This document shows, in pieces, positions 39,333 through 57,195 of a stretch of 64,000 bases of DNA; positions within the stretch are counted from its first letter, which is position 1, and each line of letters begins with the position of its first letter. The stretch lies in assembly GCA_049472395.1 (NCBI GenBank), contig JBLIRR010000009.1, positions 59,710 to 123,709 on the forward strand. The letters are read 5' to 3'. The DNA comes from a bacterium (GTDB lineage: Bacteria > SZUA-182 > DTGQ01 > JBLIRR01). The position numbers and the translations under genes were made by a program. The notes under the pieces were generated by a model. The model did no database searches. It was not told the DNA's origin and was given only the letters and a program-made list of their open reading frames with translations.

Positions 39333-39344
39333 GGAGGATTTTCG

Positions 39345-40112
39345 ATGAAAAAATATCTATTATACCTGTGCCTTCTCTGTTGTATCCTGATGATGAATGT
39401 TTCCTGTGAGGCACCACAAAAGCAAAGCCGGAACAAAAAAAAAGAGATCAATAGAGAAATAGATCTTGCAAAGATTAAACGCATAGACATTCCCATTGAT
39501 GAAAGTCTTGTCACGAGTGAGGCATCACTGACGCGTAATTTTTACTTTATTTTTGACGGCAGTGGAAGCATGCAGGACGCGCCGGGAGGTGCGTGCAGGG
39601 GAGATCAACGATTTGGCAGCAAACTTGAGGGTGCCAAGTGGGCCGTGCAAGAATTTATGAAAAAGGTACCTGATACTATTAACATAGCTCTCTATGTGTT
39701 TGATACCTACTATGGGAGACGGGAGGTTGTGCCGCTTGGAACAAATAATAGGCAGGAATTTATTCGGGCGGTGAATACAATTCGCCCCGGAGGTATGACG
39801 CCGCTTGCCGACGCAATAAAATTTGCCACTGATCAGCTTGTGAGCCAATATAAGAAACAGCTCGGATATGGGGAATACAGAATAGTCGTTATCACGGACG
39901 GTATTGCTGAGGATATACCAGAGGCTGTTATTTACTCTGCAAAGCGAGGCATGCCGATTTACGCTATAGGATTGTGTATTGGCGATGACCATCCGTTGCG
40001 GCGATATGCTCTTTCATACAGAGCAGCGGATAATTTTGCCGATTTGGCAAAAGGATTGGAAGAGACCCTGGCTGAGTCGGAGGTGTTTGATCCCACGGAA
40101 TTCAAATTTTAA
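39345..40112 (+). CDS. Lipoprotein with von Willebrand factor A (VWA) domain
   Basis: Lipobox MMNVSC. MIDAS-like FIFDGSGSMQD plus downstream T/D residues. Confidence 0.7.
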   Translation: MKKYLLYLCLLCCILMMNVSCEAPQKQSRNKKKEINREIDLAKIKRIDIPIDESLVTSEASLTRNFYFIFDGSGSMQDAPGGACRGDQRFGSKLEGAKWAVQEFMKKVPDTINIALYVFDTYYGRREVVPLGTNNRQEFIRAVNTIRPGGMTPLADAIKFATDQLVSQYKKQLGYGEYRIVVITDGIAEDIPEAVIYSAKRGMPIYAIGLCIGDDHPLRRYALSYRAADNFADLAKGLEETLAESEVFDPTEFKF

Positions 40113-40127
40113 GTGAGGTAAAGCGCG

Positions 40128-41678
40128 GTGAAAAAATCAACTGTAGGCGCACTATTACTTATAATCATAGGCATTATCGGCGTTGTCGGCTATTCATTTT
40201 TAAAACCCTGGCTTTTTGAAAAATCCATTCGGAAGACCTCGGATGCATCAAAGACATACCAAACCATACGAATAGGTGGGGACAATTACCTCGGATACTG
40301 GTTCATCACATCGCCTGAGATGCGCAAATTTGCTGCACGAAGGGGTTTGCAGATCGATTTTACCGATGATGAAGGGGCTTACAGGGAACGCTTAGAAAAA
40401 TTTGCAAAGGGGCAGTATGAGTGTATTGTGTTGCCGGTGAATTCCTATCTTGAGCATGGCGCCCCACATAGCTTCCCTGGTGTGATCGTCGCCTCAATCT
40501 CAGAATCAAAGGGTGCGGACGGGATTGTTGCCTTCTCCGATATCCTTTCTACCGGCACAATCAATGACCTTAATGATGCAAATATTAAAATTGTCTATAC
40601 AAGTGAATCTCCGAGTTCTTTCTTGCTCGATTTAACTATTGTTGATTTTGATCTTTTTCAACTCCAAAACAATGACGCCTGGCGTGTTGAAGTTGCAAGT
40701 TCCAAGGAAGTATATACCCGCGCGAAAAAAAATGAAGGAGATGTGTTTGTACTGTGGGAGCCTGATTTATCAAAAGCTATAGAACTGCCAGGAATGAAAT
40801 ATCTTTGGGGCTCTGATAAATTCGCGGGGTATATTTTAGATGTGTTCGTCTTCAACCGTAAGTTTTTCGAAAAGCAAAGTGATACAGTGCGTGATTTCCT
40901 CAATGCTTATTTCCGTGTAATGAGCATCTATAAAAATAATAGGGATCAAATGGTGAAGGAAATGAGCAAATCAACCAGGTTGAAAAAGGAGGTGATTGAG
41001 GATATGCTCAATAAGATAGAATGGTTTGATTTGCATGAGAACAGCAGTATGCAGTTTGGCATTACCTCCCGGGTTGGTGTACCGGTCAATGATGGCCTTA
41101 TTACGACTATTATTGCCTGTACCGAGGTAATGATAAAAACCAAAAAATTTGATAAGGACCCGCTTCAAGGAAATCCCTATTTGATTACCAACAGTCAAAT
41201 TATTGAGGAATTATCCAAGACGGGTATTGTCTCTGCCCTGGCTGGGTCCACAGGAGATTCCGTAGATTTTAAGCCTCTTGATGATGCAGGTTGGGAAGCC
41301 CTTCGCGAGATTGGGACGCTCCGTGTTGAGCCGATTACCTTCCAGAGATGGGATAATCTGATGGATGCGGCGGGAAAAAAGATCGTGGACAAGATTGCCC
41401 AGATGCTCGAGCATAATTACCCTCACTATCGGATAGTCATTCGGGGCCACACCGAACCAGGTGGAGATGAGAGGGAGAATGAAAAATTATCAATGCAGAG
41501 GGCCCAGACTGTAAGGCAATATTTAATTGCAGTACATACTATTAATCCTCACCGGCTGAGGGCAGAGGGGAGGGGGTCGAAATCGCCGCCAGCGCAAAGG
41601 CCGGGTGAGTCTCCACGAGCGTATCGCTATCGTTTATCACGGGTTGAGTTGGTGGCTTTTGAGGAAAATCTTTTGTAA
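40128..41678 (+). CDS. Membrane-anchored SsuA/NMT1-like substrate-binding-fold protein fused to C-terminal OmpA-like domain
   Basis: N-terminal TM helix. IRIGGDNYLGYWFITSPEMRKF...GVIVASISESKGADGIVAF. OmpA-like YRIVIRGHTEPGGDERENEKLSMQRAQTVRQYL...RVELVAF. Confidence 0.6.
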   Translation: MKKSTVGALLLIIIGIIGVVGYSFLKPWLFEKSIRKTSDASKTYQTIRIGGDNYLGYWFITSPEMRKFAARRGLQIDFTDDEGAYRERLEKFAKGQYECIVLPVNSYLEHGAPHSFPGVIVASISESKGADGIVAFSDILSTGTINDLNDANIKIVYTSESPSSFLLDLTIVDFDLFQLQNNDAWRVEVASSKEVYTRAKKNEGDVFVLWEPDLSKAIELPGMKYLWGSDKFAGYILDVFVFNRKFFEKQSDTVRDFLNAYFRVMSIYKNNRDQMVKEMSKSTRLKKEVIEDMLNKIEWFDLHENSSMQFGITSRVGVPVNDGLITTIIACTEVMIKTKKFDKDPLQGNPYLITNSQIIEELSKTGIVSALAGSTGDSVDFKPLDDAGWEALREIGTLRVEPITFQRWDNLMDAAGKKIVDKIAQMLEHNYPHYRIVIRGHTEPGGDERENEKLSMQRAQTVRQYLIAVHTINPHRLRAEGRGSKSPPAQRPGESPRAYRYRLSRVELVAFEENLL

Positions 41679-41705
41679 CATAATATAAATAAAAAGGTGA
41701 GTTGA

Positions 41706-42560
41706 ATGCGGAACCGATGCCTGAAAAGACCGACGGCAAAACCAGAAAAATTGCCCACTGTTGCTGATTTTTCATCCGCTGCTGTGCAGAAAGCCATACT
41801 CTCTGAAACCCTTCAGCATCCGATAACGTTGTATCCGGCAGGTATCTCGTTGGTGAGTCTCCTCTACATGGGCCTTGTGAGCTTTAATCCAACGTCATTT
41901 GCCATTTGCTTCGGGAGTGGCTTATTTAGTCTTGGCTCCTGGGTATATAATTTTTTCCTTAGGGGCAAGGATTTTGAATCGAAATATATTAGAAACCTCC
42001 AGAATGCTTTGGCACAACAGACCGAAAAAGCCTTAAGGGACTTAAAAAGCGATCTTCTTGATAATGAGTGCCCGGAGGCAGCTGAGCAACTTGATAAATT
42101 AAAGGAAAAATTCGAAAGTCTTGATGAACTGTTAAGGGAGAAGCTTGATGAAAAAGAACTCACCTTCGGACGATATCATGGCATTGGGCAACAGGTCTAT
42201 TTTTCAGGGATCGATAACCTGCAGGATGCTGCAGCAGCATTAAAAAGCATTAGCGCCATTGATCCGGCGCGTATAAAGAAGTTGCTTAAAAAACTTCGAA
42301 GCATCAAAGAACCTGATGGGGTAACGTTGAAGGAAATGGAGACATTAGAGGAGAGACAAAAACTAAGGGATGATCAACTTCGGAAAGTGAAACAGCTCAT
42401 GATTCAGAATGAGGCCGCCATGACTCAATTGGATAAAACCACCATTGCCATTGCTGAAATGGATACGATGAAGGGCCAGTCTGACGTAGATATGGAAACA
42501 GCCATGACAGAGCTTGCACAGATTACGGAACGGGCAAAGGATTATTCAAATAGCGTATAA
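41706..42560 (+). CDS. Membrane protein (2 TM) with long coiled-coil region
   Basis: Two hydrophobic helices near residues 55-100, followed by a heptad-rich charged region. Confidence 0.4.
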   Translation: MRNRCLKRPTAKPEKLPTVADFSSAAVQKAILSETLQHPITLYPAGISLVSLLYMGLVSFNPTSFAICFGSGLFSLGSWVYNFFLRGKDFESKYIRNLQNALAQQTEKALRDLKSDLLDNECPEAAEQLDKLKEKFESLDELLREKLDEKELTFGRYHGIGQQVYFSGIDNLQDAAAALKSISAIDPARIKKLLKKLRSIKEPDGVTLKEMETLEERQKLRDDQLRKVKQLMIQNEAAMTQLDKTTIAIAEMDTMKGQSDVDMETAMTELAQITERAKDYSNSV

Positions 42561-42615
42561 AATTTTTATTCCGGCGCAGCCGGCAATATTATCTTTACAA
42601 GGGGGAGGATAATTT

Positions 42616-43821
42616 ATGGAAGCACAAGGAAACGTAACAGTCAAAGAGAGAGCTTCAACCGGCTTGATTGTGCCGGATGAAGTCGCAGTGAAACAGGAGC
42701 TGCAGCTTGTGGACCCAACATCCATATCAACGCAGGCCGTGGATTCGAATTTAGAAAAACAGGCTGATGATTTCATTGAGATGCTACTGAGCGGTGATAT
42801 AGATGATCAGAAAAAAAAGATGGCTGTTGATCAGATGGGTGCAAAGACCCAGAAAATAGCGGCGCAACGAAGCAAGATGCTTCAGCAGCCAATTAATAAC
42901 CTCGTAAAAACGGGTGAAGATGGGGGGCCTGTTGCCAAGTCACTTGTAGACCTGAAAATGCAGGTAGAAGCGCTTGATCCGGTAAAATTTGATTTTGCTC
43001 CCGGATGGTTTTCACGATCACTTGGATTCCTGCCTTTTATCGGCACGCCACTTAAAAAATATTTTACCCAATATGAAAGTGCTCAAACTGTTATTGACGC
43101 TATTATTAAATCTCTCGAGAAGGGGAGGGACCAATTAAGGAGAGATACGATTACCTTGTCAGCGGACCAAAAAAGTATGCGGGAGATGACCATACGGTTA
43201 GAGCGGGCTATTCAGCTTGGCCAACTTCTTGATCAAAAACTCCAGTATAAACTTGACAGGGATATCCCCCCCGAAGATCCGAAATACAATTTTATATCTG
43301 ATGAACTATTATTTCCTCTGCGCCAGCGGGTAATGGACTTGCAGCAACAGTTGGCGGTGAATCAACAGGGTGTCCTTGCAACAGAGATCATCATTCGAAA
43401 TAACAGAGAGCTTATGCGAGGCGTGAACCGGGCATTAAATGTCACCGTTAACGCCCTGCAAGTGGCGGTCACCGTTGCTCTGGGACTTGCCAATCAAAAA
43501 ATCGTGTTAAAGAAGATCGAGGCCATTAATAAGACCACATCAGACCTCATTGCAAATACCGCCCAACAGTTGCGGATGCAAGGCGCCCAGATTCATAAAC
43601 AAGCCTCTCAGGCAGCGCTCGATATGAATTCATTGGAGAAGGCTTTTGCAGATATAAATGCAGCGTTAGATGATATTTCAAAATTCCGGAGAGAGGCACT
43701 TCCGCAAATGGCTAATTCAATATTGCGCATGAACACTCTGACTGACCAGGCTGAAGAAAGTATCAGTAAGATAGAGCAGGGGACACAACTGCAATCAGAA
43801 ATTATTATTGATGTAGAATAA
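42616..43821 (+). CDS. TelA-like (toxic anion resistance family) protein
   Basis: About 400 aa, soluble and highly alpha-helical/coiled-coil. Overall pattern reminiscent of TelA/KlaA/YceH from memory. No diagnostic motif confirmed. Confidence 0.4.
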   Translation: MEAQGNVTVKERASTGLIVPDEVAVKQELQLVDPTSISTQAVDSNLEKQADDFIEMLLSGDIDDQKKKMAVDQMGAKTQKIAAQRSKMLQQPINNLVKTGEDGGPVAKSLVDLKMQVEALDPVKFDFAPGWFSRSLGFLPFIGTPLKKYFTQYESAQTVIDAIIKSLEKGRDQLRRDTITLSADQKSMREMTIRLERAIQLGQLLDQKLQYKLDRDIPPEDPKYNFISDELLFPLRQRVMDLQQQLAVNQQGVLATEIIIRNNRELMRGVNRALNVTVNALQVAVTVALGLANQKIVLKKIEAINKTTSDLIANTAQQLRMQGAQIHKQASQAALDMNSLEKAFADINAALDDISKFRREALPQMANSILRMNTLTDQAEESISKIEQGTQLQSEIIIDVE

Positions 43822-43840
43822 AAACAAGGGGGAGATATAA

Positions 43841-44917
43841 ATGCGTGAATCACGATTTTTTACTTTATTTTTAATAAGCATTATTACTATTATGGTGGTC
43901 GCTACAATTCCTCTGCATTCTTTTGCGCGACCGAAAAAATACACCGTTGCATGGTCAATTTATGCTGGCTGGATGCCCTGGGATTATGCGGGATATGCAG
44001 GTATTCTCAAGAAATGGGCAGATAAATATGGCATAGCCATTGATCTTGTAAGGATGGATTATATCCCATCGGTAGAGGCTTTTGTCGCAAAAAAGGTAGA
44101 TGGGTGCGTTATGACGAATATGGAATGTCTTGATATGCCGGCATCCTCTGGCATTGATTGCACGGTGCTTATCATGGGGGATTTTTCAAATGGCAATGAT
44201 GCTATTTTGACGCGCGATGGGATCGGGATCGCGGGATTGAAGGGCAAGGATATTTACCTGGTGGAGCTTTCCGTATCTCACTATCTTCTGGCACGCTGTC
44301 TTGAAATGAATGGCTTAAAGGAGAAAGATGTGAGGATAGTAAATACCTCTGACAGCGATATCGGACCGGTTTTTCTCTCAAATAAATCACAAAAGGCAGT
44401 CGTCACGTGGAATCCGATAGTTATGGAAATAGAGCAGGTGCCAGGAATAAGTAAAATATATACCTCAGCGAATATCCCTGGTGAAATCCTCGATCTTATG
44501 GTTGTAAGCACCGATGTACTTAATAAGAATCCTGATTTTGGTAAGGCTCTCACCGGCGCATGGTATGAAGTTATGGATATGATGTCGAAAAGAGGACCTG
44601 TGGCGGATAAAGCCCTCACATATATGGCTGAATCCGCAGGTACGTCACTTGTGGAATATAAGAGGCAACTTGCAACAACAGCAATGTTCTATACCCCTCA
44701 ATCGGCGACTGATTATACAAAGGGCAGTGAGATCAAAGAAAAAATGAATTTTGTGCGAAAATTCTGTTTTGATCATGGATTGCTCGGTGAGAATGCCCCT
44801 TCAATGGACATTGTCGGTATTTCCTATCCTGATGGCACCATTCAGGGGGATAGGAAGAATATTAAAATGCGGTTTGACAGCACCTATATGCAGCGTGTCG
44901 CTGATGAGCACCTTTAA
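43841..44917 (+). CDS. ABC transporter periplasmic substrate-binding protein, SsuA/TauA/NMT1 family
   Basis: Signal peptide. KKYTVAWSIYAGWMPWDYAG... pattern typical of nitrate/sulfonate/bicarbonate-family SBPs. Followed by permease and ATPase genes. Confidence 0.75.
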   Translation: MRESRFFTLFLISIITIMVVATIPLHSFARPKKYTVAWSIYAGWMPWDYAGYAGILKKWADKYGIAIDLVRMDYIPSVEAFVAKKVDGCVMTNMECLDMPASSGIDCTVLIMGDFSNGNDAILTRDGIGIAGLKGKDIYLVELSVSHYLLARCLEMNGLKEKDVRIVNTSDSDIGPVFLSNKSQKAVVTWNPIVMEIEQVPGISKIYTSANIPGEILDLMVVSTDVLNKNPDFGKALTGAWYEVMDMMSKRGPVADKALTYMAESAGTSLVEYKRQLATTAMFYTPQSATDYTKGSEIKEKMNFVRKFCFDHGLLGENAPSMDIVGISYPDGTIQGDRKNIKMRFDSTYMQRVADEHL

Positions 44918-44934
44918 AGGTAAATGGGCCAAAG

Positions 44935-45744
44935 ATGCAATTCTTTAAGATCAATGCTCGGCCACGCCGTACAAGTGCGCTTATCATCTCCTCTCTCTTG
45001 TTTATTATCTGTATCACTACGTATTTTGTGGGCTCCTACTTAAGGCATAAGGAGAATCCTCAGGATAAAGTTATGCCCACAATTTCCGAGATGGTACAGG
45101 GATTGTATCGGTCAGCATTCACGCGGGATCGAAAGGGAGAATATAGACTTCTTGTTGACAGTGTGGCCAGTGCCAGAAGGTTCTTTATCGGAACAGCGCT
45201 GCTTTTTCTTGCCATGATACTTGGTCTTAATATGGGCGTGTTCCCCTATATCGAGGAATTATTTTTGGGGTTTACACTATTTTTCGATAAAGTACCCGCC
45301 CTTGCCTTGCTTCCGATCTTATTTATTGTATTTGGTCTTGGAGAGGTCTCCAAGATCGCTCTTATTGTGGTTGGGGTGTTCCCGACGATTATTTTAGATA
45401 CGTATTTAAGGGCAAAGGAAGTGCCGAGAGAGCAAATTATCAAAGGATTGACTCTAGGGGCCAGTGATTTTGAGATCGCCTATCGGATTGTCCTCCCTCA
45501 AATATTTCCCAAAGCCCTTGATACGATAAGATTGAATTTTAAAGCGGTTATGCTCTATTTGATCGCCGGCGAATCACTCGCTGCCACGGTTGGCCTTGGG
45601 TATCGGATCTTCGTTGTGAGGCGCTACATTGCCATGGACATAATTATTCCCTATGTCATATGGATGAGCCTTCTGCTTTTTATTACTGATATGGCGGTCC
45701 GGATATGGATTAATAAACGCTATCCCTGGCTTGATAAAGAGTAA
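44935..45744 (+). CDS. ABC transporter permease (SsuC/TauC-like)
   Basis: Six hydrophobic helices. EAA-like loop region (...AKEVPREQIIKGLTLGAS...). Confidence 0.8.
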   Translation: MQFFKINARPRRTSALIISSLLFIICITTYFVGSYLRHKENPQDKVMPTISEMVQGLYRSAFTRDRKGEYRLLVDSVASARRFFIGTALLFLAMILGLNMGVFPYIEELFLGFTLFFDKVPALALLPILFIVFGLGEVSKIALIVVGVFPTIILDTYLRAKEVPREQIIKGLTLGASDFEIAYRIVLPQIFPKALDTIRLNFKAVMLYLIAGESLAATVGLGYRIFVVRRYIAMDIIIPYVIWMSLLLFITDMAVRIWINKRYPWLDKE

Positions 45745-45749
45745 AGACA

Positions 45750-46673
45750 ATGGATGATTCACGGCACTATATACTCTATCTTGAGAATATTTATCAGAAA
45801 TATCCGGATAAGGAAGGAAGATTCAGAACGATACTCAATGATATTGATCTGAGGGTCAGGGAGGGAGAGTTCTTAACGGTTGTCGGGCCGACCGGATGTG
45901 GCAAATCCACGCTCCTTCGATTGATTTTAGGATCAGAGCGCCCATTTAGCGGAAATCTCCTGGTGAATGATTCCAAGGTGAGCAGCCCTGACAGAAATCG
46001 AGGAATCGTGTTTCAAAAGTATTCTCTCTTTCCTCACCTTACTGTGCTTGAAAATGTCATCTTCGGGCTTCAACTTGAGAAATTCACTCTCCCCGGACGT
46101 CTCCTAGGGCCTATTCACTTTCGGAAAAAGTCAATGGAATTTAAAAAGCAGGCGATTGAGTATTTAAAGCGGGTGGGCATGGATAACGATGTGAATAAGT
46201 ATCCCTATCAATTATCAGGCGGAATGCGCCAAAGGGTGGCCATTGTGCAAGCCTTAATAATACAGCCTGCCCTTTTGCTCATGGATGAACCCTTTGGAGC
46301 TCTCGATGATGGAACACGTCAGGTGATGCAGCTTTTTATGCTTGAGCAGTGGGAAAAGACAAAAATGACCATATTCTTTGTCACTCATGATCTTGAGGAA
46401 GCATTATTCCTCGGAACCCGTGTTATTGTCCTGTCTCCATATTATAAAACCGACTGTGAAGAGTGTGAAGGCTCAAAGATAGTAACCGATAAGGCCATTT
46501 CAGGGAGCCACCCCAAACCGACTGATTTCAAATATACCCCAGAATTTAATAAGCTGCTTGAGCAGATACGAAGAGATGGCCTCGATCCATCCCACACACA
46601 ACATATCAGCCAATTCGACCTCAGCCACGCTGATTCCTACCGTTCAGTGACAGGCGATGAATGGAGAAGATAA
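45750..46673 (+). CDS. ABC transporter ATP-binding protein (SsuB/TauB-like) with C-terminal extension
   Basis: Walker A GPTGCGKST. Signature LSGGMRQRV. Walker B LLMDEPFGALD. Confidence 0.85.
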   Translation: MDDSRHYILYLENIYQKYPDKEGRFRTILNDIDLRVREGEFLTVVGPTGCGKSTLLRLILGSERPFSGNLLVNDSKVSSPDRNRGIVFQKYSLFPHLTVLENVIFGLQLEKFTLPGRLLGPIHFRKKSMEFKKQAIEYLKRVGMDNDVNKYPYQLSGGMRQRVAIVQALIIQPALLLMDEPFGALDDGTRQVMQLFMLEQWEKTKMTIFFVTHDLEEALFLGTRVIVLSPYYKTDCEECEGSKIVTDKAISGSHPKPTDFKYTPEFNKLLEQIRRDGLDPSHTQHISQFDLSHADSYRSVTGDEWRR

Positions 46674-46692
46674 ATAACTACATTGCATAATA

Positions 46693-46790
46693 CTGTCACT
46701 TTATGACAGTATTCTACAATTATATCAAGAAATCATTTGAAATAACTTTCAAATATCGATATAATGTAAGAAACTGTTATTTATTGACAG
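46693..46790. promoter_or_regulatory. Palindromic operator-like sites ACTGTCA-N5-TGACAGT (46693-46710) and CTGTTA-N5-TGACAG (46774-46790) upstream of the AbiEi gene
   Basis: Inverted repeats seen in the sequence. AbiEi antitoxins are known to autoregulate by binding inverted repeats in their own promoter. Confidence 0.4.
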
Positions 46791-46811
46791 TAACATGCAA
46801 AAAACATCGAT

Positions 46812-47456
46812 ATGCAAAAGATTGTAGAATTAATTTTAGAAAAAAGTCCAGTTGACTATATTACAACAGATTTGTTGCATATGATTTTAGGGGGATCAAA
46901 AGATAGGTTATATAGTATTGTGAAACGAGCTTTAGCTTCAAAGGACTTGGTGAGAGTGCGTAGAGGACTTTATGTTCTTGGCGAAAAATACCGTCGTTTT
47001 AAAATTTCGGAAGTCATTTTGTCTCAAAGAATTTATTCTCCTTCATATTTAAGCTTTGAATATGCGTTATCATTTCATGGATTGATTCCGGATATAGTTC
47101 AAAGAGTATTATCCGCCTCATATTATAGATCACAAGTATTTGAAACTCAGGTTGGGATTTATGAATACTATCATATTCCTTTAAAACCATTTTTTTTAGG
47201 TGTCCAAAGGCATAAAAATCAATTTGGAAATGGATTCTTGATTGCTGGACCAGAACGAGCGCTTTGTGATTTGATTTATAAAAAGAAAATAAAATGGGTA
47301 AATATATCTGTACTTGTGCAGGGTTATAGAGTTGAAGAAGAAGAACTATTAAAATTTAATCAAAAATTATTAATTGATGTTGCTGATAATTATCCTGTGA
47401 TTTTTGTTAAGAAATTTATTAACAAATTAGTGAAGGAAATTAATAATGTCTTATAG
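46812..47456 (+). CDS. AbiEi-family type IV antitoxin (wHTH + C-terminal domain)
   Basis: About 214 aa, directly upstream of an AbiEii-like gene and overlapping it by 11 bp. The N-terminal region is compatible with a winged helix. Family-level call from gene context and length. Confidence 0.55.
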   Translation: MQKIVELILEKSPVDYITTDLLHMILGGSKDRLYSIVKRALASKDLVRVRRGLYVLGEKYRRFKISEVILSQRIYSPSYLSFEYALSFHGLIPDIVQRVLSASYYRSQVFETQVGIYEYYHIPLKPFFLGVQRHKNQFGNGFLIAGPERALCDLIYKKKIKWVNISVLVQGYRVEEEELLKFNQKLLIDVADNYPVIFVKKFINKLVKEINNVL

Positions 47457-48294
47457 GTCACTGATTGAGGAGCGTCTACGAGAATCTGAATACCGATCTG
47501 AATTAGAAGAAGAGAATGCATTAAAACAAATCTTTCAAGAAATTATTTTATATGCACTTTATGAAGCCCGATTTTTTAATATTGCGGCATTCCATGGTGG
47601 GACAGAACTTCGGATTTTAAGAAATTCGAATAGATTCTCAGAAGATTTAGATTTTGCGTTGTATGTAAAAAACAAAGCATTTGATTTTTCTCTTATGACA
47701 AAACAGGTTAAAGAAAGTTTGTTCAACTGGGAGGTAGAAATGGAGGTTATTGATAAGTCAAAAGCAGGCAATGTTATAAAAAAAATGTTGCTAAAAGATA
47801 CTTCCATGGCTAAGTTACTGATTCTTAATCCTCTATATGATAAACGAAAAACTGTAAGCGTTAAGGTTGAATTAGATACACATCCCCCAGAAGGAATTAA
47901 CACCGAAATTAAATACTTAGAATATCCTGTTACATTTCCTGTGACAAGCTTCGACTTATCTACAAGTTTTTCTGGTAAGTTACATGCATTATTATGTAGA
48001 AATTATATCAAGGGACGTGATTGGTATGATTTTATTTGGTACACCCAAAAAAAACCTGAATTAAACATTAAATTTATTAGAAATGCATTTTTTCAACAAG
48101 GCCCATGGGAAAAACAGAATATTGAGATAGATAAAGAATGGATTATAGAAAAATTGAAACAAAAGATCAATGAGATAGATTGGAAACAGGCAAAAGAGGA
48201 TGTCCGACCATTTTTGAAGCATGATTATGTTGGAGGACTTGAACACTGGAGTAAAGCATATTTTCAACAAGCCCTTATGAGATTATATGAGTAA
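47446..48294 (+). CDS. AbiEii/AbiGii-family nucleotidyltransferase toxin (DUF1814)
   Basis: FHGGTELRILRNSNRFSEDLDF matches the conserved GG[ST]xL...R.S.DlDf nucleotidyltransferase core of AbiEii. Confidence 0.75.
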   Translation: MSYRSLIEERLRESEYRSELEEENALKQIFQEIILYALYEARFFNIAAFHGGTELRILRNSNRFSEDLDFALYVKNKAFDFSLMTKQVKESLFNWEVEMEVIDKSKAGNVIKKMLLKDTSMAKLLILNPLYDKRKTVSVKVELDTHPPEGINTEIKYLEYPVTFPVTSFDLSTSFSGKLHALLCRNYIKGRDWYDFIWYTQKKPELNIKFIRNAFFQQGPWEKQNIEIDKEWIIEKLKQKINEIDWKQAKEDVRPFLKHDYVGGLEHWSKAYFQQALMRLYE

Positions 48295-48510
48295 TAATTT
48301 AATGTCGCATTCGAATATCGAATGGGGTCAGACTGCTCTTTTCCATTATGAATATTTGATATCAGGCAGACAGGCACATCAGTATTATTCAACTGGTATG
48401 AATCCTGCCAAAAAATACTTGTTTCTTCCTCGTTCCCCTTCAGCGATTAGAATTCTTTTTTTCATTACCATGAGTCATCTTGGAATGATAAATCACTGTC
48501 CCAGTCTCTT

Positions 48511-48882
48511 CATTTCTCTCACCTTATCGTACTTGAAAATGTCATATTCTGTCTTCAACTTGAAAAATTCACTCTCACCGGACGTCTCCTAAGGCCCATC
48601 CACTTTCGGAAAAAGTCATCGGAACCCGTGTTATTGTCCTTTCTCCATATTATCACACTGATTGTGAAGAGTGTGAAGGCTCAAAGATAGTAACAGATAA
48701 GGCCATTTCAGGGAGCTACCCCAAACCGACTGATTTTAAATATACCCCAGAATTTAATGAGTTGCTTAAACAGATACGAAGAGATGGCCTCGATCCATCC
48801 CACAGACATCATATCAGTCAATTCGACCTAAGCCACGCTGATTCTTACCGTTCAGTGACACCCGATGAATGGAGAAGATAAA
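48511..48882 (+). pseudogene. Degenerate, internally deleted duplicate of the 3' end of the ABC ATPase gene (45750..46673)
   Basis: 48511-48618 is about 90% identical to 46025-46133, and 48619-48882 is about 90% identical to 46408-46676, with about 274 bp of intervening gene sequence missing. By-eye alignment in the sequence. Confidence 0.7.
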
Positions 48883-48902
48883 TAAGGAATTTTACGGACC
48901 CA

Positions 48903-49352
48903 TTACTGTAATAGAGCCCAGCTTAAATAGACATCGGGTGTACCATAAACAAATGTTGGATACTCGGACTGGGCATAGGGAAAGGTAATCCCAGGCAAAG
49001 TCGTATATGAAAATGTAGTTTCATAAGGAGAGCTTGGATAGGGATACGTCGGAATACCGGTGGTGGTGTATAACCCTGTTATATCAGGGGGCAGAAAAGG
49101 GCTGAATGTAGAGAATCCGAGCAGAGTTCCATTGATACTATTGAAATATGCATAAAAATAATAAGGACGCATGGTCTGTTGTAATAAAATAAAAGCTAAA
49201 GGCGCAGGGAGAATATCGAAGGGTGGCCAAATGATTATTGGCCAGGGCTCGATAGAGTATTGTCCCCGGACATTTGATCCGGGTGTTAAGGCGAAAACAC
49301 TCATAACTATAACAATTATTATGGCGGCTTTAAAGAATTTATAATTATGCAT
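48903..49352 (-). CDS. Small secreted P/Y/W-rich protein (possible distant relative of the LPPYNTLWPLWSP family)
   Basis: Signal peptide. PWPIIIWPPFDILPAP. Tyr/Pro-rich C-terminus. Confidence 0.45.
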   Translation of the reverse strand: MHNYKFFKAAIIIVIVMSVFALTPGSNVRGQYSIEPWPIIIWPPFDILPAPLAFILLQQTMRPYYFYAYFNSINGTLLGFSTFSPFLPPDITGLYTTTGIPTYPYPSSPYETTFSYTTLPGITFPYAQSEYPTFVYGTPDVYLSWALLQ

Positions 49353-49514
49353 ACGTTCTCCTCATCTTTTTGTGTATTATGCGTACTTTGTCAGAAAAAA
49401 ATAAAAAAATCTTTCTACTGAATAGTATAGTTCTCATTATATCATAGAAAGGGTATATATTAGAGAAAATGTTTTTATTATTTTTTAGCCCTTTTTGAAA
49501 AAAGGGAGAGAAGG

Positions 49515-49961
49515 TTATGGAAATATTAATATATTATTGGTAATTCCCTTTATACCGTAAACAGTGCAAGCCAGTTCTTCTATCAGATATTTCTCCCACA
49601 ATTGCTGAACATGTCCTTCAAGTGTTACCCATCGGTTATTTATTAAAACCTCGATATGATAAATATCAATATCTGCATACAATTTAAGAACATTGATAAG
49701 ATTTGATTTCAGATTCGCGTCATCCGGCAGCACCTCTGTGCTCGGATATTGAACCACTATATTATTAATGACGCGCGAGACTCCTAGTATATGCGAGGCA
49801 TAGACTTCAGCCTTATGCGAGGCTAAATAACCGAATACGGCGCCTGACAATGTCACTTGCCCATCTTTAACAGCGACCTTAACATTGGCGAGATCGACCT
49901 GGCCGTCCTGACAAAGACGATCTATGAGTACTTTTTTGATGTGTTGATCTAGGCGAGACAT
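49515..49961 (-). CDS. Tandem BON-domain protein (OsmY-like), no signal peptide
   Basis: Two repeats of the BON pattern (...VKVAVKDGQVTLSGAV... / ...IEVLINNRWVTLEGHV...). Confidence 0.5.
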   Translation of the reverse strand: MSRLDQHIKKVLIDRLCQDGQVDLANVKVAVKDGQVTLSGAVFGYLASHKAEVYASHILGVSRVINNIVVQYPSTEVLPDDANLKSNLINVLKLYADIDIYHIEVLINNRWVTLEGHVQQLWEKYLIEELACTVYGIKGITNNILIFP

Positions 49962-50532
49962 AGTTATCCCTTTTCCCTTATTCTTTCTCTTCTCGGAGGT
50001 ATTATTCTCTTTTCTATTTTCAGGATCTTAACATACTATTTAAAAAATTATTATATATAATGATTAAATTCTCATCAATTGTTTATTGCCTCTTTTATTT
50101 GACTTTTTACTACCTGTTATATGAATACATCCTTATCTTTCAATGTATGATTCTTATAACAATAGTAAGACGTATTCATTGTCGAAGTTCAATTTTCCAT
50201 TGATTATTCGTACACTCATTTATAGCAATTGTAATATCAATTAAACCGTCGAATAATTTTTTATCGCTCCACCACCCAACAAATAGCCGGAATCCCTTGT
50301 ATATCTAAGAGTACGCCATAATGAGATTGCTGATATTTCAGTTACTGTGTTGAAAAATTATCAATAATTATATATAATTCTATTATTAAAAACAAAGAAC
50401 ACATTACTTCTCTTACCGTTATTCGTATGAGTTCGAAGCCTTGAATGTTGAACCTATGAACGTCCAGGAAAAACAGAAGAGAAAGCAGGGGAGGGGCATT
50501 ATGAGGAAAATAAAAAATGAGATCAAGAGTAT

Positions 50533-51972
50533 ATGAAAACCTTTAAAAGAGGAGAAAAGAATATGAGATGGATGAACAAAACTATATTTTCTATAATAGT
50601 GTTCATTGCATGTAGTTATGTGTTACACATACCATGTTCAGCGCAACAATACCAGGTGTATATGGGAGCACCTCTTTACATGGCAGCGAAGAATATGTAT
50701 CAGTATTCACCCTCCTTTTCCATAGTGAACAAATGGACTTCCCTTATGGAAAATAACTGGATAAATACCATGAATATCCAAGTACGTAGTTACGCACCAT
50801 CAATTTTTACACCGCATGATTTCTGGTGGACAATGTACCCAATCGATACGCAGACAGAGGAGCTGCCGGAGGAGGGACATCAGACTCAAGGATTAATGCT
50901 TCTCATTGAATTTGAGGGAATAGAGGGACTGAGTAATTTTGTCTATGAGCTTCAAAGCAGGGAAATTGTTTCACTATTATTAGCCTCAGCACAGTTTGTA
51001 GAGGAGAATTGCGAACAGGTAAAAATGCTTCAACAGTATGGATTGGAAGTGGGGGCTGTGTACTCGAATGTAGCGCTTTGGGATGTACCCTATGAGGAGC
51101 AGTTTGATATTATGAAAACAACTGTCGAGGATATTGAGGCGTGTATCGGTAAACCGGTAAGAATATTCGGATCGAGGTATTTTGCCTACGATGAAAATAC
51201 CGTGAGGGCTGCTGAAGCCCTTGGCATTCCTTATGTGCTCGCACGGGGAACCACTGGGGCTAAGGCAACGATTTATCAACCGGAAGAATATGATGTTAAA
51301 ATCTTTTCGGTTTCAAATGTGTCATCAGAGAAGTATGGAACAGGAAGTCTCTGTGACTACAGTTATTGGGCGCGCGAGGGAACGTCAGAGCAGTTCAGAG
51401 AAGAGCTGTATGGAGCGCTCACATTTGATAAAATCTCTCCGGTGTCCCATACCTATATCGGGGGATTAAAAGCAGCATGGAATGAAGTGTATATAGATTT
51501 TTTCGACAATGCTGATGTTGTATGGGTTGATTTGGATACCTTCGGAAGTATTGATAGCACACTTCCTTTTGCAGAGATCCCACAGAATCGAGAGGTCCAA
51601 TATACTACACCAAAACCGGCCGTCCCTTTAGAGGAAGAACCTAATGTGGCAAACCCCTGTGCTCTTGAAGATTTTCCCTTTTATAATGATCAGGGAGGGA
51701 ATGTAGGGGACAAGATCGTGTTCTTTCATAACGGGACTGGCCCCATGTGTCTGGATTTCCTTGATTTTATTGCCACAATCGAGTATCCCATAGAGGAATA
51801 TCTCATAGGTGATGAAGAATTCAGGGATGCATTGAATGCCCTTAAAGCTGAATTCGGATCAAGTGAAGGTGTCTCAGCCTCTTTTGGCTATTTCCCCATA
51901 ATATTCATTCGCAATAAAGCGTATTCAGGATTTAATGAGACGATTCAGTCTGATATAGAGGGGATGCTGTAA
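50533..51972 (+). CDS. Secreted hypothetical protein
   Basis: Signal peptide (...PCSAQQ). 479 aa with no confident motif. A possible polysaccharide-deacetylase-like central region is unverified. Confidence 0.4.
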   Translation: MKTFKRGEKNMRWMNKTIFSIIVFIACSYVLHIPCSAQQYQVYMGAPLYMAAKNMYQYSPSFSIVNKWTSLMENNWINTMNIQVRSYAPSIFTPHDFWWTMYPIDTQTEELPEEGHQTQGLMLLIEFEGIEGLSNFVYELQSREIVSLLLASAQFVEENCEQVKMLQQYGLEVGAVYSNVALWDVPYEEQFDIMKTTVEDIEACIGKPVRIFGSRYFAYDENTVRAAEALGIPYVLARGTTGAKATIYQPEEYDVKIFSVSNVSSEKYGTGSLCDYSYWAREGTSEQFREELYGALTFDKISPVSHTYIGGLKAAWNEVYIDFFDNADVVWVDLDTFGSIDSTLPFAEIPQNREVQYTTPKPAVPLEEEPNVANPCALEDFPFYNDQGGNVGDKIVFFHNGTGPMCLDFLDFIATIEYPIEEYLIGDEEFRDALNALKAEFGSSEGVSASFGYFPIIFIRNKAYSGFNETIQSDIEGML

Positions 51973-51989
51973 GGGGTTTAAGGGACAAA

Positions 51990-53345
51990 TCAAATAGTAT
52001 TATCAGATAAAAGAAACGCGGTTTCTCCGGCTTTGATATGAATGGTATCAAGATGCTGTGAGCCCCCACAGTGATTGACAGAAATACAGTACTCTCCTTC
52101 AGGCACAAAACTGCGCGCCAAGTAAATCTCACCCGGTAATGTTTTCCATGATCGCGTGTCCGCCTTTTCTATAAAAACAGTATTTGTCACATTGGCCGCA
52201 AACCTGAGAAAAGGATCATCTATCTTTTTCGTTGCTGTTTGTTTGAGAGCGACCCTGGCAATTGCTTTGGCCATAATCCTGCCTTTGCGGTCGTCAAGGT
52301 TTTTAACCGCGATTTTATTAATATCTTCCACTAATTCAGCCTCAACAGTAATTGTTTTTGATGGTCCCTTAATAATCATTGTGCTGGCGCTGCACTGGGG
52401 TTTATTTACCACATAGCGAGGGAACGCCATTGACACCGGCCCCTCTTTTGTTCCCACAATGAGTTTATCTTCAATCTTTACAGGCGATTTTCCGTTAAGG
52501 TGAATCATTACGATCCTGCCCATCTTCTCTGCATTTTTCTGTTGTATCCCCGTATAGTGATCTGCACCTATGTTGTACCTGTCGAGCTCATCAGCTCTGC
52601 CGGTGGCCTGGGCGACTCTTATGATGTCATGGAGTAATGATTCCGGCATGCGAGTGCCATAATGCTTCCCATAATCCTGAAAAGCCTTGAATGCCTTGAA
52701 GTAATCTATATACGCATCCTCAAGGTTCCCGTTGGCCTCATAAAGCATACCGCTTAAGTATCTGCCGAAGGCATCCTCCTTATACACATTCTTTTTTTCA
52801 TATTTATCATTAAATGACAGAAGCAAGGAATCAAGACGCCGACACTCAACCAGAGCATCTTCATTCTTCCCCTCTATCACGTAATTTAAAGCGGAAAAAA
52901 GATTAATAAGCGCCCTCTCAAAATCCTCTCCATTGTAAGGGAGTATAAAGTCATTCGTAATAAATGAAGCAGCTTCTTTTGATAATTTCTTGGTCCAAAG
53001 CTCTTCAGCAAGTTTTTCAGCCTTGTGAAAATAGGTGTTGCTTTCATCATAATTTCCGCATCTAAGATTGATCATGGCAGAATCAAGTAAGAAAATCAGG
53101 GTATTGTTATGCCCATACGATTTCTTATTTTTTTTTAGAAACTCAATCGCAACGGGGCAATTGCGGGCTCGCATATGATTCTCTAACGTACGGTAATTAA
53201 GCGCCGGTGCACAGCCCCCGCACAAGGTGAATCCTACCATGATAATAATAAAGTATAAGTGAAGGGGAGAGGAACGCATACCGGACAGGGGGACCACCGC
53301 AGGTGGAAGCTCCCCCTGTTCTCTATGGTGTGCTAATAATTTCAT
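51990..53345 (-). CDS. TPR-like lipoprotein (COG3014-like); the true start is probably the internal Met giving the lipobox LCGGC (about 53279)
   Basis: Lipoprotein signal MRSSPLHLYFIIIMVGFTLCGGC. Helical repeat region. Sits in a lipoprotein operon. Confidence 0.45.
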   Translation of the reverse strand: MKLLAHHREQGELPPAVVPLSGMRSSPLHLYFIIIMVGFTLCGGCAPALNYRTLENHMRARNCPVAIEFLKKNKKSYGHNNTLIFLLDSAMINLRCGNYDESNTYFHKAEKLAEELWTKKLSKEAASFITNDFILPYNGEDFERALINLFSALNYVIEGKNEDALVECRRLDSLLLSFNDKYEKKNVYKEDAFGRYLSGMLYEANGNLEDAYIDYFKAFKAFQDYGKHYGTRMPESLLHDIIRVAQATGRADELDRYNIGADHYTGIQQKNAEKMGRIVMIHLNGKSPVKIEDKLIVGTKEGPVSMAFPRYVVNKPQCSASTMIIKGPSKTITVEAELVEDINKIAVKNLDDRKGRIMAKAIARVALKQTATKKIDDPFLRFAANVTNTVFIEKADTRSWKTLPGEIYLARSFVPEGEYCISVNHCGGSQHLDTIHIKAGETAFLLSDNTI

Positions 53346-53930
53346 TTATTTGAATTCACCGAACTCTTTCTCTATTTCTTCATCAAGCTCTTCCTGGGCC
53401 TTTTGCGCCTGGAATTTTTGCCATAATGATTTTTCATTTTTGTAGCTGGTCATCATTGAATTTTTCACAGCTTGGGCTGCCATCTCAGAATCAAGGGTAA
53501 CAAGCACATATATCTCTCCGCTTGGAGATATCCATACATCCTTTTGCCTTGAACCTGTAATGACCTGGCTTGCAACCTGTTTTGAAACATTTGTGGATAC
53601 CTTGTCCACGGTTTCGTCATCGCCAATTCCCGTATTTTCTGTGAAATTCTTGACCATATTCTTTACTTTTACGTTCATCATTCTGGCTAATTCATCCCGT
53701 GCATTTGCTAAAGCCATGGTCCTGGTGTGCTGCACGCCTGCTTTGCTTTTTTGTGATGAACCAACCGCAGCTAATCCCTGGTCCGCCGATGCCCCAAGAA
53801 CCCATTGTGGGGCATTGGCAAATTCGTTCGCCAAATCTTTATCCTGTATCTTTGTGCCCTTTTTACGCCCGCAACCGGACACGGTGATAAAGAGCATTAA
53901 AATTATCGTGCACCATGCAATTTTTTTCAT
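53346..53930 (-). CDS. LPP20/FlgP-like lipoprotein
   Basis: Lipobox VSGC. ...QHTRTMALANARDELARMMNVKV resembles the LPP20 fold signature. Confidence 0.45.
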   Translation of the reverse strand: MKKIAWCTIILMLFITVSGCGRKKGTKIQDKDLANEFANAPQWVLGASADQGLAAVGSSQKSKAGVQHTRTMALANARDELARMMNVKVKNMVKNFTENTGIGDDETVDKVSTNVSKQVASQVITGSRQKDVWISPSGEIYVLVTLDSEMAAQAVKNSMMTSYKNEKSLWQKFQAQKAQEELDEEIEKEFGEFK

Positions 53931-53966
53931 ATACTGTCTCCTTTCATGTGGTTAAAATTTTGGTCG

Positions 53967-55442
53967 TTATGTTGACTCATGAAAATAAATCACTTTCGGT
54001 TTTTCATTTTTGAATTGGGGCATGGCCATTCCGATATCAGCATTAATATAGGTTGGATCACATATGATATAGCGGATGCCATTGGCGAGGATACTGTCAC
54101 CTTCTAGAGGGTCTGTAAACTTGACTGCCGTTGCCAGATGATTCGGATAATGAAGACCGATGACGGAAAGCCCGGTAAGTTTTCTCACTAAAAATGCAAA
54201 AAGAATGGATCGGTCTTCGCAATCTGAGAAAGGATAATAGAGAGTTTCTTCAGAAAGCATATACTTCTCTCTTCCGAATTGGGCATCGTCAGTCTTATAT
54301 TCAAAGGCTGTCTGCACAAAGTGGAGTAAGAAATTGACAGCCTCTCCCTCAGATTTCCCTCCAATATACGGTCTTAATCCATTGAGTAACGATTCTGTTG
54401 CTTCATCCGAGACCGGGGCTTGAAAATATACCTCAAAATTTGTCTGGGGGTAAAACCTAAAGAATTCAATAAGTTCTGCATTAAAGGTGACAGGAATCTC
54501 ATAACGCTTCCCCTGATAGTCAAATGAGAGGTTTTTTGTACTGGGTATATGCGTTATGTTCGGAGAAAATTGAATGCTCGTATCCATCACGCGATCAGCT
54601 TCAGGATAACTTCCTTTATAGGTATATAACGCTCCAAGCTGCTTTTTGGTTTCATCAAATGAAATGGCATAATATTTTTTTCCATCCAATTTGATAAAAG
54701 GAACCGCGTAGAGTGTAGTGTGTGAAGGCAGCAATAGATTTACTTTATTTTCATTATAACCTATACGCGCCTCATAACCTGATTTTGAAAGGATGAACCA
54801 GGCTAAAAGCGTCGTTTCATTGGCGTTTTCTTTACCATAGAGTGCTTCACCCATTTTATATATAAGAAAATAGTAGCCCCAGTCATTGAGCTGGAGGTCG
54901 TTCTTATATGTGTGGATAGCATGGACAGTATTTTCATAGGACGCTTTGCTCAAAGTTTCCCAGAAAGAGCTGATATTATTCTTATCTATACTCCCTTTTA
55001 TTGTGAGCTTCATGGCAGGATCGTAAGGGATATCAAGTGATTGTCCGAAAAAAGTTATCGTCACAGACCTTCCCTCTATCTTCTGCCCAACAGGCTCTTT
55101 CTTCGGAGTCGGTTTTGGAGGAGCCTGTGCGGGTATTTTTTCTATTTTCGTGCCCTGAAAAGATTTTTCTTTATCTGCCGCTTTCTGAGAGGGAGCACGA
55201 GGGACTCTTACAGGTTTTGGTTTCTCATATATTTTAGCACCCGCAAAGAGGGTGAATTCTTTCCACTGTCTTTTAAGGTACCTGGTAAATTCCTTGTCCC
55301 GTTTATCTTTGAATTCCTGAAAATCACCAAGTTCCTGTTTTTTCCACTTCTCAAATTCACTTTCTGCACCTGTGTGATGTATGAGAACAAATGAAAATAG
55401 AATAAAAATCAAGACACAAGAATTTTTCCATTTTATCATCAC
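53967..55442 (-). CDS. Secreted protein with possible transglutaminase-like/papain-fold Cys-His-Asp domain
   Basis: Signal peptide. C-terminal ...YPFSDCEDRSILFAFLVRK...HYPNHLATAV...YIICDPT is arranged like the C/H/D triad of transglutaminase-like cysteine peptidases. Low certainty. Confidence 0.35.
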   Translation of the reverse strand: MMIKWKNSCVLIFILFSFVLIHHTGAESEFEKWKKQELGDFQEFKDKRDKEFTRYLKRQWKEFTLFAGAKIYEKPKPVRVPRAPSQKAADKEKSFQGTKIEKIPAQAPPKPTPKKEPVGQKIEGRSVTITFFGQSLDIPYDPAMKLTIKGSIDKNNISSFWETLSKASYENTVHAIHTYKNDLQLNDWGYYFLIYKMGEALYGKENANETTLLAWFILSKSGYEARIGYNENKVNLLLPSHTTLYAVPFIKLDGKKYYAISFDETKKQLGALYTYKGSYPEADRVMDTSIQFSPNITHIPSTKNLSFDYQGKRYEIPVTFNAELIEFFRFYPQTNFEVYFQAPVSDEATESLLNGLRPYIGGKSEGEAVNFLLHFVQTAFEYKTDDAQFGREKYMLSEETLYYPFSDCEDRSILFAFLVRKLTGLSVIGLHYPNHLATAVKFTDPLEGDSILANGIRYIICDPTYINADIGMAMPQFKNEKPKVIYFHEST

Positions 55443-55451
55443 AAGATACCT

Positions 55452-56444
55452 TTATTCTGGATCTTTAAAATAGTCGAGAATCCTCACGGTAAGTACCTTA
55501 GAAACTTTTTTTATGGCATTATGTGCCGCTTCGGAATAAGTGAGATGTGAACCTCTCTTATTCTCCTCAATCTTACCAACTATTTCATTGGTATGAGTAT
55601 CCATAATAGCAACTGATACAGTGGCACGCGCATACTTCCAATCAGGATTTTTAATGTCCACCTGTTCGAGAGTGACGGAGCCTTTAAGAGTGATATTGGA
55701 ATTGTCCCTTTCCGTGGTTATGATATACCCCTCCTGACCCAACTGTTCTGAAATCAAGCTCGCCACTGTCTTTGTATAGTTATCCTCGGCAAAATCGAGG
55801 TATATTCTCATACTCGCCTTTATACTGTGTATTTTTTTGTAAATATCCCGTATTTCATAATCAGTGATGGACGCATCCTCAAAGCCAAGAACTCTCAATC
55901 TGCTTGCGATGACCTGCCTTTCAAGCCAAAGCTTATTAATGTGCAGGAGCGATCGTAACTTCGAGAAGGGGCTAGGCATACTCTCAAGAGAATTAAGAGT
56001 TATTTCTATTTTATCATCCATACTGTCTATTTTTTCCTGCCACTCCCTCCTCGCTTTTTGTCTGTTAAGAACCGCAAGAGCATAATAGACATTTTGTTTC
56101 TCGTCATACCATGTTTTCCCTATCGTGACCCCTTTAAGCTCAACGGCCGAGAGTACCCCGATTTTTTGTTCAGCATCCCTCGTGACAGTCTCTTCTCCGG
56201 ATTCACTTGTGGCTGATCTTACTATACTAAGTACGCTGCTCATTACGGTGGATTCAAAAATGGATGACATCTCTGCCTTTGCCTGACGCCGTGCCTCTTG
56301 CTCTGATTGGCCGATTCCTGTTGCGGTAAGGTATTTTGAGGCTGAATACTCTGGGGTGATATCCGGTTTTTTTGATGCTGCAAATGCCGGGAGTGCGCTC
56401 AATAAAAACATCAGTAAAAGGAGTTTTTTCATTGTGCCTCTCAT
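55452..56444 (-). CDS. LPP20/FlgP-like lipoprotein with C-terminal extension
   Basis: Signal peptide ...FAAS. YLTATGIGQSEQEARRQAKAEM matches the LPP20-type motif. Confidence 0.5.
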   Translation of the reverse strand: MRGTMKKLLLLMFLLSALPAFAASKKPDITPEYSASKYLTATGIGQSEQEARRQAKAEMSSIFESTVMSSVLSIVRSATSESGEETVTRDAEQKIGVLSAVELKGVTIGKTWYDEKQNVYYALAVLNRQKARREWQEKIDSMDDKIEITLNSLESMPSPFSKLRSLLHINKLWLERQVIASRLRVLGFEDASITDYEIRDIYKKIHSIKASMRIYLDFAEDNYTKTVASLISEQLGQEGYIITTERDNSNITLKGSVTLEQVDIKNPDWKYARATVSVAIMDTHTNEIVGKIEENKRGSHLTYSEAAHNAIKKVSKVLTVRILDYFKDPE

Positions 56445-57040: not shown

Positions 57041-57195
57041 CTCACAATTTCCTCCCCAGAAAATTAATAATTTTTTTTATGAAGATAACAGCTTATTAAA
57101 AATATGTCAAATTATAATGTATAATATCAGCAATTCTAATTTTGACTGTTAAATTTCTCGCCATATTTTATATACCCATAATGAGATTGATTATA

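Follow-up and report, generated by a model that had tools for sequence, protein, structure and literature searches.

How a small toxin-antitoxin cassette with no recombination enzyme of its own can enter a chromosome and leave the gene beside it intact is the question raised by an AbiE locus in a 64,000-nucleotide stretch of contig JBLIRR010000009.1 (the window, 64 kb). In this locus an abiEi-abiEii gene pair lies directly behind an intact ABC-transporter ATP-binding gene (the ATPase gene), and a second, degenerate copy of the end of that gene lies behind the pair. The cassette was probably integrated by a homology-guided single crossover, in which the incoming DNA already carried the 3′ end of the ATPase gene and the displaced copy of that end decayed afterwards.

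A foreign cassette between two copies of a gene end

A BLASTN comparison of 48291-48900 with the ATPase gene gives two collinear matches, both in direct orientation. The segment 48505-48618 matches 46023-46133 at 100 of 114 positions (88%, E 3e-34), with three extra bases, while 48616-48885 matches 46408-46677 without gaps at 250 of 270 positions (93%, E 5e-112). The downstream copy (48505-48885) is 381 bp long and represents the final 655 bp of the ATPase region (46023-46677). It lacks 277 internal bp (about 46134-46410), a deletion which lies at a TC(A) microhomology and which shifts the reading frame, leaving parts A and B of the copy out of frame with each other; the net difference in length between the two copies is 274 bp. 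The homology of both copies stops 4 nt past the stop codon (TAAATAA). The left copy sits inside the full gene, while the right copy begins abruptly at the equivalent of 46023 and runs into the downstream DNA. This geometry, with a full gene, an insert and a 5′-truncated gene end, is the expected product of a single crossover with a circle. No further copy of the repeat or of the cassette is present elsewhere in the window.

The original prediction had described a diverged (about 90%) copy of some 370 bp, derived from the last 650 bp or so of the ATPase gene with about 274 bp deleted, and had read it as the footprint of an insertion or recombination event that duplicated the end of its target gene. 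Its coordinates and sizes are right to within a few bases, the homology of the copy to the ATPase 3′ end is borne out by the alignments, and the repeat does bracket the AbiE cassette.

The cassette occupies about 1.83 kb (46678-48504). Its GC content is 0.29-0.32 (about 0.31), compared with 0.41-0.47 (about 0.44) in the flanks; it is compositionally foreign and was acquired horizontally. The two genes, whose reading frames overlap by 11 nt, are the only credible ones within it. No integrase, recombinase, transposase or terminal inverted repeat was found between the repeat copies in the open reading frame (ORF) map, the domain and defence-profile scans or the inverted-repeat scan. The spacer that separates the abiEii stop codon from the displaced copy has no match in the rest of the window or in about 110 related loci that were fetched (identified below by L numbers), and may be a piece of the donor’s context.

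Insertion sequences are characterized by a transposase, terminal inverted repeats and a short target duplication of fixed length. A transposon or insertion sequence was rejected here, since the insert lacks a transposase, its two ends are not related as inverted repeats and the duplication is 655 bp long. An integron gene cassette, with an attC site at its end and an array beside intI, was rejected as well by sequence comparison (no attC structure was modelled), the flanking repeat being ATPase coding sequence with no similar repeat elsewhere in the window, and so was a tRNA-linked island, since the 64 kb contain no tRNA gene.

The collections contain no close relative of this genome. In a search of 5.8 billion proteins the nearest ATPase has 74% amino acid identity and the nearest AbiEii 58%, with most AbiEii relatives at 45% or less; proteins identical to the ATPase and to AbiEii are recorded from one metagenome-assembled contig only. 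No ATPase above 62% was found in the species-representative genome set. Relatives of the window AbiEii are absent from the phage collection, and 23 distant ones (about 40%) are carried on plasmids. At a greater distance, the site without the cassette can be seen in L018 and L104/L105, whose ATPases are 70-71% identical and which have seven upstream genes in common with the window. In these loci the next gene follows the ATPase gene after 47-57 bp, with neither AbiE nor a second ATPase end between them. Since these syntenic relatives carry neither cassette nor duplicate, no duplication without an AbiE insertion is seen among them, and the reading of the repeat as an insertion footprint stands. 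The loci L019/L020, L106 and L109 share the ATPase with the window but not its neighbourhood, and are uninformative about the site.

Repeats of this kind recur around related AbiE cassettes. In 1-kb flanks a strong direct repeat (E < 1e-6) brackets 6 of 34 related AbiE loci but only 1 of 196 mock cassettes, which are positions elsewhere in the same contigs (Fisher p = 4e-5); the count is 5 of 33 when duplicate sequence is removed (p = 3e-4). When the flanks are extended to 2.5 kb, host-sequence repeats of 27-655 bp bracket 10 of 57 distinct loci, among them the window. This count excludes one duplicate sequence and the repeats of three loci: that of L078 is purine-rich and of low complexity, that of L098 is a short REP-like repeat, and that of L099 (4808-4901 and 6769-6862) consists of the 3′ end of another abiEii, a truncated one that precedes the intact cassette. 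The truncated gene in L099 is a remnant of tandem or replaced AbiE cassettes. The repeats of the sister loci (Table 1) are ends of neighbouring genes or tRNAs, or terminator regions, and no integrase occurs in any unit examined.

Several sister loci have features of their own. The repeat in L032 is a 5′ end and not a 3′ end, so the rule seems to be preservation of an intact neighbour copy rather than targeting of 3′ ends. In L065 the tRNA-Lys pieces bracket the AbiE cassette and a DUF4172-Fic gene in tandem, beside an intact tRNA-Lys; the 3.5-kb contig carries no integrase. An IS200-like (Y1_Tnp) gene lies inside the repeat-bracketed unit of L041 (6852-7526, 2.5e-11), and another, with a weak match below the cut-off (5e-4), lies beside the unit of L022 (3657-4304). 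There is no IS200-like gene near the cassette of the window.

The route of insertion

In a single crossover, the incoming DNA, derived from a close relative, would have been circular or have become so, and would have carried the cassette together with a copy of about 655 bp of the ATPase 3′ end. One reciprocal, Campbell-type exchange at the ATPase 3′ end would place the insert between two direct copies of the homologous segment. Of these, the upstream one would remain joined to the 5′ part of the gene, which would stay intact, while the downstream one, with neither a 5′ part nor a function, would decay through the 277-bp deletion, the 3-bp insertion and AT-biased substitutions. The exchange may have been catalysed by RecA or by a recombinase acting in trans. 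In E. coli conjugation, foreign DNA has been found flanked by duplications of 109-950 bp of the homologous locus (PMC3240628), and the duplications of 655 bp in the window and 27-191 bp in the sister loci are similar in kind to these products of Campbell-type integration. The E. coli case is a laboratory construct, whereas in the window the crossover is not directly visible and no natural vehicle has been identified. A literature search on repeat-flanked toxin-antitoxin insertions returned nothing specific.

A crossover can be read at the sister locus L087, which has close relatives at 95% amino acid identity. L110/L111 represent its empty site, with the thioredoxin gene followed by an RND membrane-fusion gene, and the displaced copy in L087 continues into native DNA that matches the downstream flank of L112. 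When the two copies of L087 are polarised against the relatives, five displaced-derived sites are found at positions 15-73, six attached-derived sites at 140-175 and one displaced-derived site at 185; between the two halves of this mosaic lies a tract of 66 bp that is identical in both copies. A reciprocal mosaic of this kind is what a single crossover with a diverged incoming copy leaves behind; duplication in place would not produce it. The mosaic is compatible with RecA and with a recombinase acting in trans alike. L112 itself has a DUF433 and PIN_10/DUF5615 toxin-antitoxin pair at the same place, without a repeat; the thioredoxin/YbbN 3′ end is a toxin-antitoxin landing site (L087 5040-7159, the same as L089; L110 6001-6966; L112 6001-7977).

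A number of observations weigh against a single crossover at the window. The changes there are mostly displaced-derived and run along the entire copy, with only two in the gene-attached copy and without a clean mosaic. As the nearest ATPase for comparison is only 74% identical, the exchange itself does not show in the window. The longest identical run shared by the two copies is 34 bp. The donor that this route requires, with AbiE beside the same gene, was not found in the searches, in which the closest AbiEii is the one at 58%. The mosaic of L087 could equally be the work of a site-specific recombinase or of RecA, and the orientation of the cassette relative to the duplicated gene end is opposite at different loci, so that no single polarity rule applies. 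In addition, a simulation with the observed mutation spectrum rejects neutrality of both lineages (p = 0.001) but gives p = 0.09 for a model in which one copy is neutral and the other constrained, so that the synonymous excess does not reject duplication in place followed by decay.

Such a duplication in place would have occurred at an illegitimate insertion, through fill-in of a staggered break, a template switch during replication, or homology-facilitated illegitimate recombination in which the non-homologous end was joined upstream of the anchor. The copies would have been identical at the start, and all of their divergence would be later decay. This origin is unlikely, though much of the pattern of change agrees with it. 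At positions where ten aligned relatives all conserve the residue, the downstream copy has T>I, G>C, P>S, H>Y, E>K and Q>H replacements as well as an inserted residue, and most of the polarised amino acid changes are displaced-derived and spread along the whole of that copy. From the attached to the displaced copy there are 21 GC>AT substitutions, 6 AT>GC and 4 others (p = 0.006). The copies are about 91% alike, far closer to each other than to any other known sequence (at most 74% amino acid identity), and the split between synonymous and non-synonymous differences does not reject the model at the p value given above.

Other features of the divergence weigh against it. The gene-attached copy has two derived changes of its own (R>G and R>T), and at these positions it is the displaced copy that retains the ancestral arginine. 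The 17 synonymous and 14 non-synonymous differences between the copies correspond to a dN of 0.054 and a dS of 0.24; their ratio of 0.23 is below the value of about 0.5 expected were one lineage always neutral, and suggests that part of the divergence may have arisen while both copies were functional alleles. Duplication in place cannot yield the reciprocal mosaic seen at L087, and bacterial insertion enzymes are not known to produce target duplications of hundreds of base-pairs.

Whatever the route, the downstream copy is a long-decaying pseudogene fragment and the event that produced it is not recent. The cassette had been described in the original prediction as recently mobile, which does not agree with a downstream copy that is 7-12% diverged, has the 21:6 excess of GC>AT changes, the 3-bp insertion and the frameshifting deletion, and has lost conserved residues, nor with a closest AbiEii at only 58% identity among 5.8 billion proteins. 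The same prediction had the ATPase 3′ end regenerated by the event; the gene-attached end may have come with the incoming DNA or may be the original one.

It is improbable that the cassette is the remnant or satellite of a site-specific integrative element similar to e14 in icd, which would have targeted the gene 3′ end and brought a substitute for it, and whose integrase has been lost or, as in a cis-mobilisable element, acts in trans. The layout matches that of icd, e14 and icdC in E. coli K-12, where a housekeeping gene has an insert at its 3′ end, the intact gene leads into the element and a diverged C-terminal pseudogene fragment lies beyond it (PMC13626634); were the insert at icd lost, the gene would become chimeric (PMC13626634). 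In the window, too, a direct repeat of the target gene 3′ end stands at both borders with the gene intact. Some of the sister repeats are partial tRNAs, as in L065, where three 27-nt tRNA-Lys pieces accompany AbiE and Fic units in tandem, and the mosaic of L087 is compatible with such an element. However, e14, a prophage of 15 kb, has a site-specific recombination system of its own, while the window insert is 1.8 kb long and contains a toxin-antitoxin pair only. Neither an integrase nor a recombinase is found between the repeats here or in any repeat-bracketed unit examined. The repeats differ from locus to locus in sequence, in length (27-655 bp) and in target, so that many different trans-acting integrases would be required; among the targets are a tRNA 5′ end together with the region before it (L032) and a PIN gene 5′ end (L088), and the cassette ends have no conserved sequence except the operator.

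A further comparison is with cis-mobilisable elements and with cargo-only islets that have att repeats at their borders and lie beside tRNA genes. Compared by description, the present units resemble them in being small, recombinase-less cargo bracketed by direct repeats of gene ends, with tandem units in L065. They are unlike them in that the repeat of the window is protein-gene sequence, long and specific to its locus, and no cognate integrase-bearing partner was seen.

Even though the identical ATPase and AbiEii proteins are recorded from a single metagenome-assembled contig, a mis-assembly that joined two strain variants of the ATPase locus is very improbable, because the downstream copy is no allele but a fragment with a frameshift and an internal deletion (its start is within the gene, its deletion lies at a microhomology of 2-3 nt, it has the 3-bp insertion, it is replaced at residues invariant in the relatives, and it shares no exact match longer than 34 bp with the other copy), and because the bracketed layout recurs in about 10 independent assemblies, with one sequence obtained from two metagenomes (L087 = L089).

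The cassette genes and their predicted operator

The cassette is a bona fide AbiEi/AbiEii pair, for which toxicity, neutralisation and phage defence are predicted from the sequence. The match of abiEi to the PADLOC AbiEi profile is full length, covering residues 1-210. The same protein has no Pfam match, and its match to the NCBIfam profile TAA_AbiEi (1.8e-10, 40.8 bits) is below the cut-off of 150. The match of abiEii to Pfam PF08843 is well above its threshold (79.6 bits, cut-off 22.5). All 49 columns that are invariant in an alignment of 28 homologues are kept in abiEii, among them G51 and G52; S65, E66, D67 and D69; K140, E142 and D144; and K189, G190, R191, D192, W193 and D195. The profile matches (Table 1) uphold the earlier assignment of the two genes, which had been made from the sequence without any profile search.

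AbiE of Lactococcus lactis and Streptococcus agalactiae is a type IV toxin-antitoxin and abortive infection system (PMC3985639). The window has the same components: an overlapping bicistronic abiEi-abiEii arrangement, the motifs of a DUF1814 toxin, an antitoxin of the AbiEi type and inverted repeats in the promoter. The window pair is unlike the characterised AbiE systems in the distance of its toxin, whose closest relative is at 58%, and in having an AbiEi that is missed by Pfam and falls below the NCBIfam cut-off.

The leader of the cassette contains two palindromes with the core ACTGTCA-N5-TGACAGT. These are the only two matches to the motif in the window, with 0.01 expected by chance; both are upstream of abiEi, and both cores lie within longer inverted repeats. 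Two perfect copies of the same core are found at the same position in L022, where the AbiEii is 58% identical. Among related loci, fetched by AbiEii alignment, the motif is present upstream of abiEi in 37 of 72, when up to 2 mismatches are allowed in a 350-bp zone, while there is 1 match in 526 kb elsewhere. Symmetric variants of the operator, for example ACTTTCA...TGAAAGT, also occur in the clade. The original prediction had noted palindromic, operator-like sites here; the cores are real, non-random and conserved in position, and it is well supported that ACTGTCA-N5-TGACAGT is the conserved, predicted operator of this AbiE clade.

AbiEi proteins repress their own operons through inverted repeats in the promoter (PMC7319586). 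The S. agalactiae promoter has two 23-bp repeats that are 3 bp apart, while M. tuberculosis Rv2827c has two pairs (PMC7319586). The operator in the window differs from that of S. agalactiae (PMC7319586) in consisting of two separate palindromes, about 80 bp apart, which flank the -35 and -10 elements. In M. tuberculosis Rv2827c-Rv2826c, too, the stretch of about 130 bp before the antitoxin gene contains more than a single set of inverted repeats, which overlap the promoter (PMC7319586); the sequence and spacing of those repeats are different. By analogy with these systems, AbiEi most likely binds both palindromes and would thereby repress the operon, with AbiEii as the probable nucleotidyltransferase toxin.

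Gene neighbourhood and wider meaning

The ATPase gene is the final member of a cluster of TelA, substrate-binding protein, permease and ATPase genes, and can be aligned over its full length with relatives at 69-74% identity. The order of genes over 37602-46673 (NMT1/OmpA-like, VWA, OmpA, unknown, TelA, substrate-binding protein, permease and ATPase) is kept at about 70% identity in L018 and L104, which are contigs from two unrelated metagenomes. A TelA-type protein is thereby associated with an ABC importer that is putatively of the urea type.

The same-strand gene directly after the ATPase in L018 and L104/L105 is a homologue (74-76% amino acid identity) of the window gene at 57196-58209, which is on the minus strand. 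Relative to these loci, the window therefore has an inverted block of about 9.3 kb (region 48886-58423). The block contains LpoB/LPP20 lipoprotein genes, a polysaccharide-deacetylase-like gene and a BON-domain gene. One of its breakpoints is at the ATPase 3′ end, adjoining the displaced repeat copy; its other end has no repeat.

Table 1. Features of the ATPase-AbiE locus in the window, and bracketing repeats of the sister AbiE loci (coordinates of the latter refer to their own contigs)
Feature	Coordinates	Strand	Evidence or remark
TelA gene	42616-43821	+	ORF map; first gene of the ATPase cluster
ABC substrate-binding protein gene	43841-44917	+	TIGR03427, putative urea ABC substrate-binding protein, 4.8e-145
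Permease gene	44935-45744	+	ORF map
ABC-transporter ATP-binding gene, intact, 307 aa	45750-46673	+	Pfam ABC_tran 3.8e-33
Left (gene-attached) repeat copy	46023-46677	+	last 651 bp of the ATPase ORF and 4 nt after the stop; BLASTN against 48505-48885
Cassette leader	46678-46811	+	two palindromes and promoter-like site
Extended palindrome 1	46682-46720, core 46692-46710		core perfect; upstream of -35
Strong promoter-like site TTGAAA-17-TATAAT	46737-46765	+	promoter scan, 11/12 positions matched
Extended palindrome 2	46765-46800, core 46773-46791		core with 1 mismatch; just downstream of -10
abiEi, predicted antitoxin/transcriptional repressor, 214 aa	46812-47456	+	PADLOC AbiEi 3e-45
abiEii, predicted DUF1814 nucleotidyltransferase toxin, 282 aa	47446-48294	+	Pfam PF08843 4.6e-22; PADLOC AbiEii 1.1e-85
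Spacer, 210 bp, GC about 0.35	48295-48504		between abiEii stop and displaced repeat copy
Right (displaced) copy, part A	48505-48618	+	matches 46023-46133, 88%; T>I, G>C, P>S at conserved residues
Right (displaced) copy, part B	48616-48885	+	matches 46408-46677, 93%; H>Y, E>K, Q>H derived at conserved positions
L022			repeat is 3′ end of DUF4143 ATPase gene
L032	1089-1255 and 3333-3452		repeat of 120 bp, 97.5%: 24 nt of tRNA-Gly(CCC) 5′ end and 96 bp upstream
L041			repeat is NifU-like gene 3′ end; IS200-like gene in unit
L065	168-3483		repeat is 27-nt internal piece of tRNA-Lys, three copies
L066, L067			repeats are terminator regions
L087 = L089			repeat is thioredoxin/YbbN gene 3′ end, 191 bp
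L088			repeat is PIN gene 5′ end; DUF4160 and DUF2442 as extra cargo

AbiE is already well characterised as a system, and the window cassette contributes to it only a distant member and an operator consensus for the clade, ACTGTCA-N5-TGACAGT. The value of the scar is that it records the entry of a recombinase-less defence or addiction module into a chromosome without destruction of the target gene. The noteworthy part is the arrangement itself, repeat-bracketed and integrase-less, which recurs around related cassettes at unrelated gene ends.

As a tentative generalisation, the AbiE cassettes of this clade, and perhaps small toxin-antitoxin and defence cassettes generally, may spread without an integrase through host-mediated crossover at homologous gene ends. 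Each unit would then carry a piece of a host gene end, and one crossover would regenerate the order of repeat, cassette and repeat, a structure from which a circle could once more be excised; loss of the cassette would be selected against by the toxin-antitoxin pair. If this is true, gene 3′ ends such as that of ybbN/thioredoxin would be recombination-driven landing pads for toxin-antitoxin pairs. Were such a crossover-based shuttle general, it would help to explain the scatter of small defence and toxin-antitoxin modules outside the classical mobile elements, and a partial duplicate of a gene end that brackets a low-GC insert would be the signature by which to search for them.

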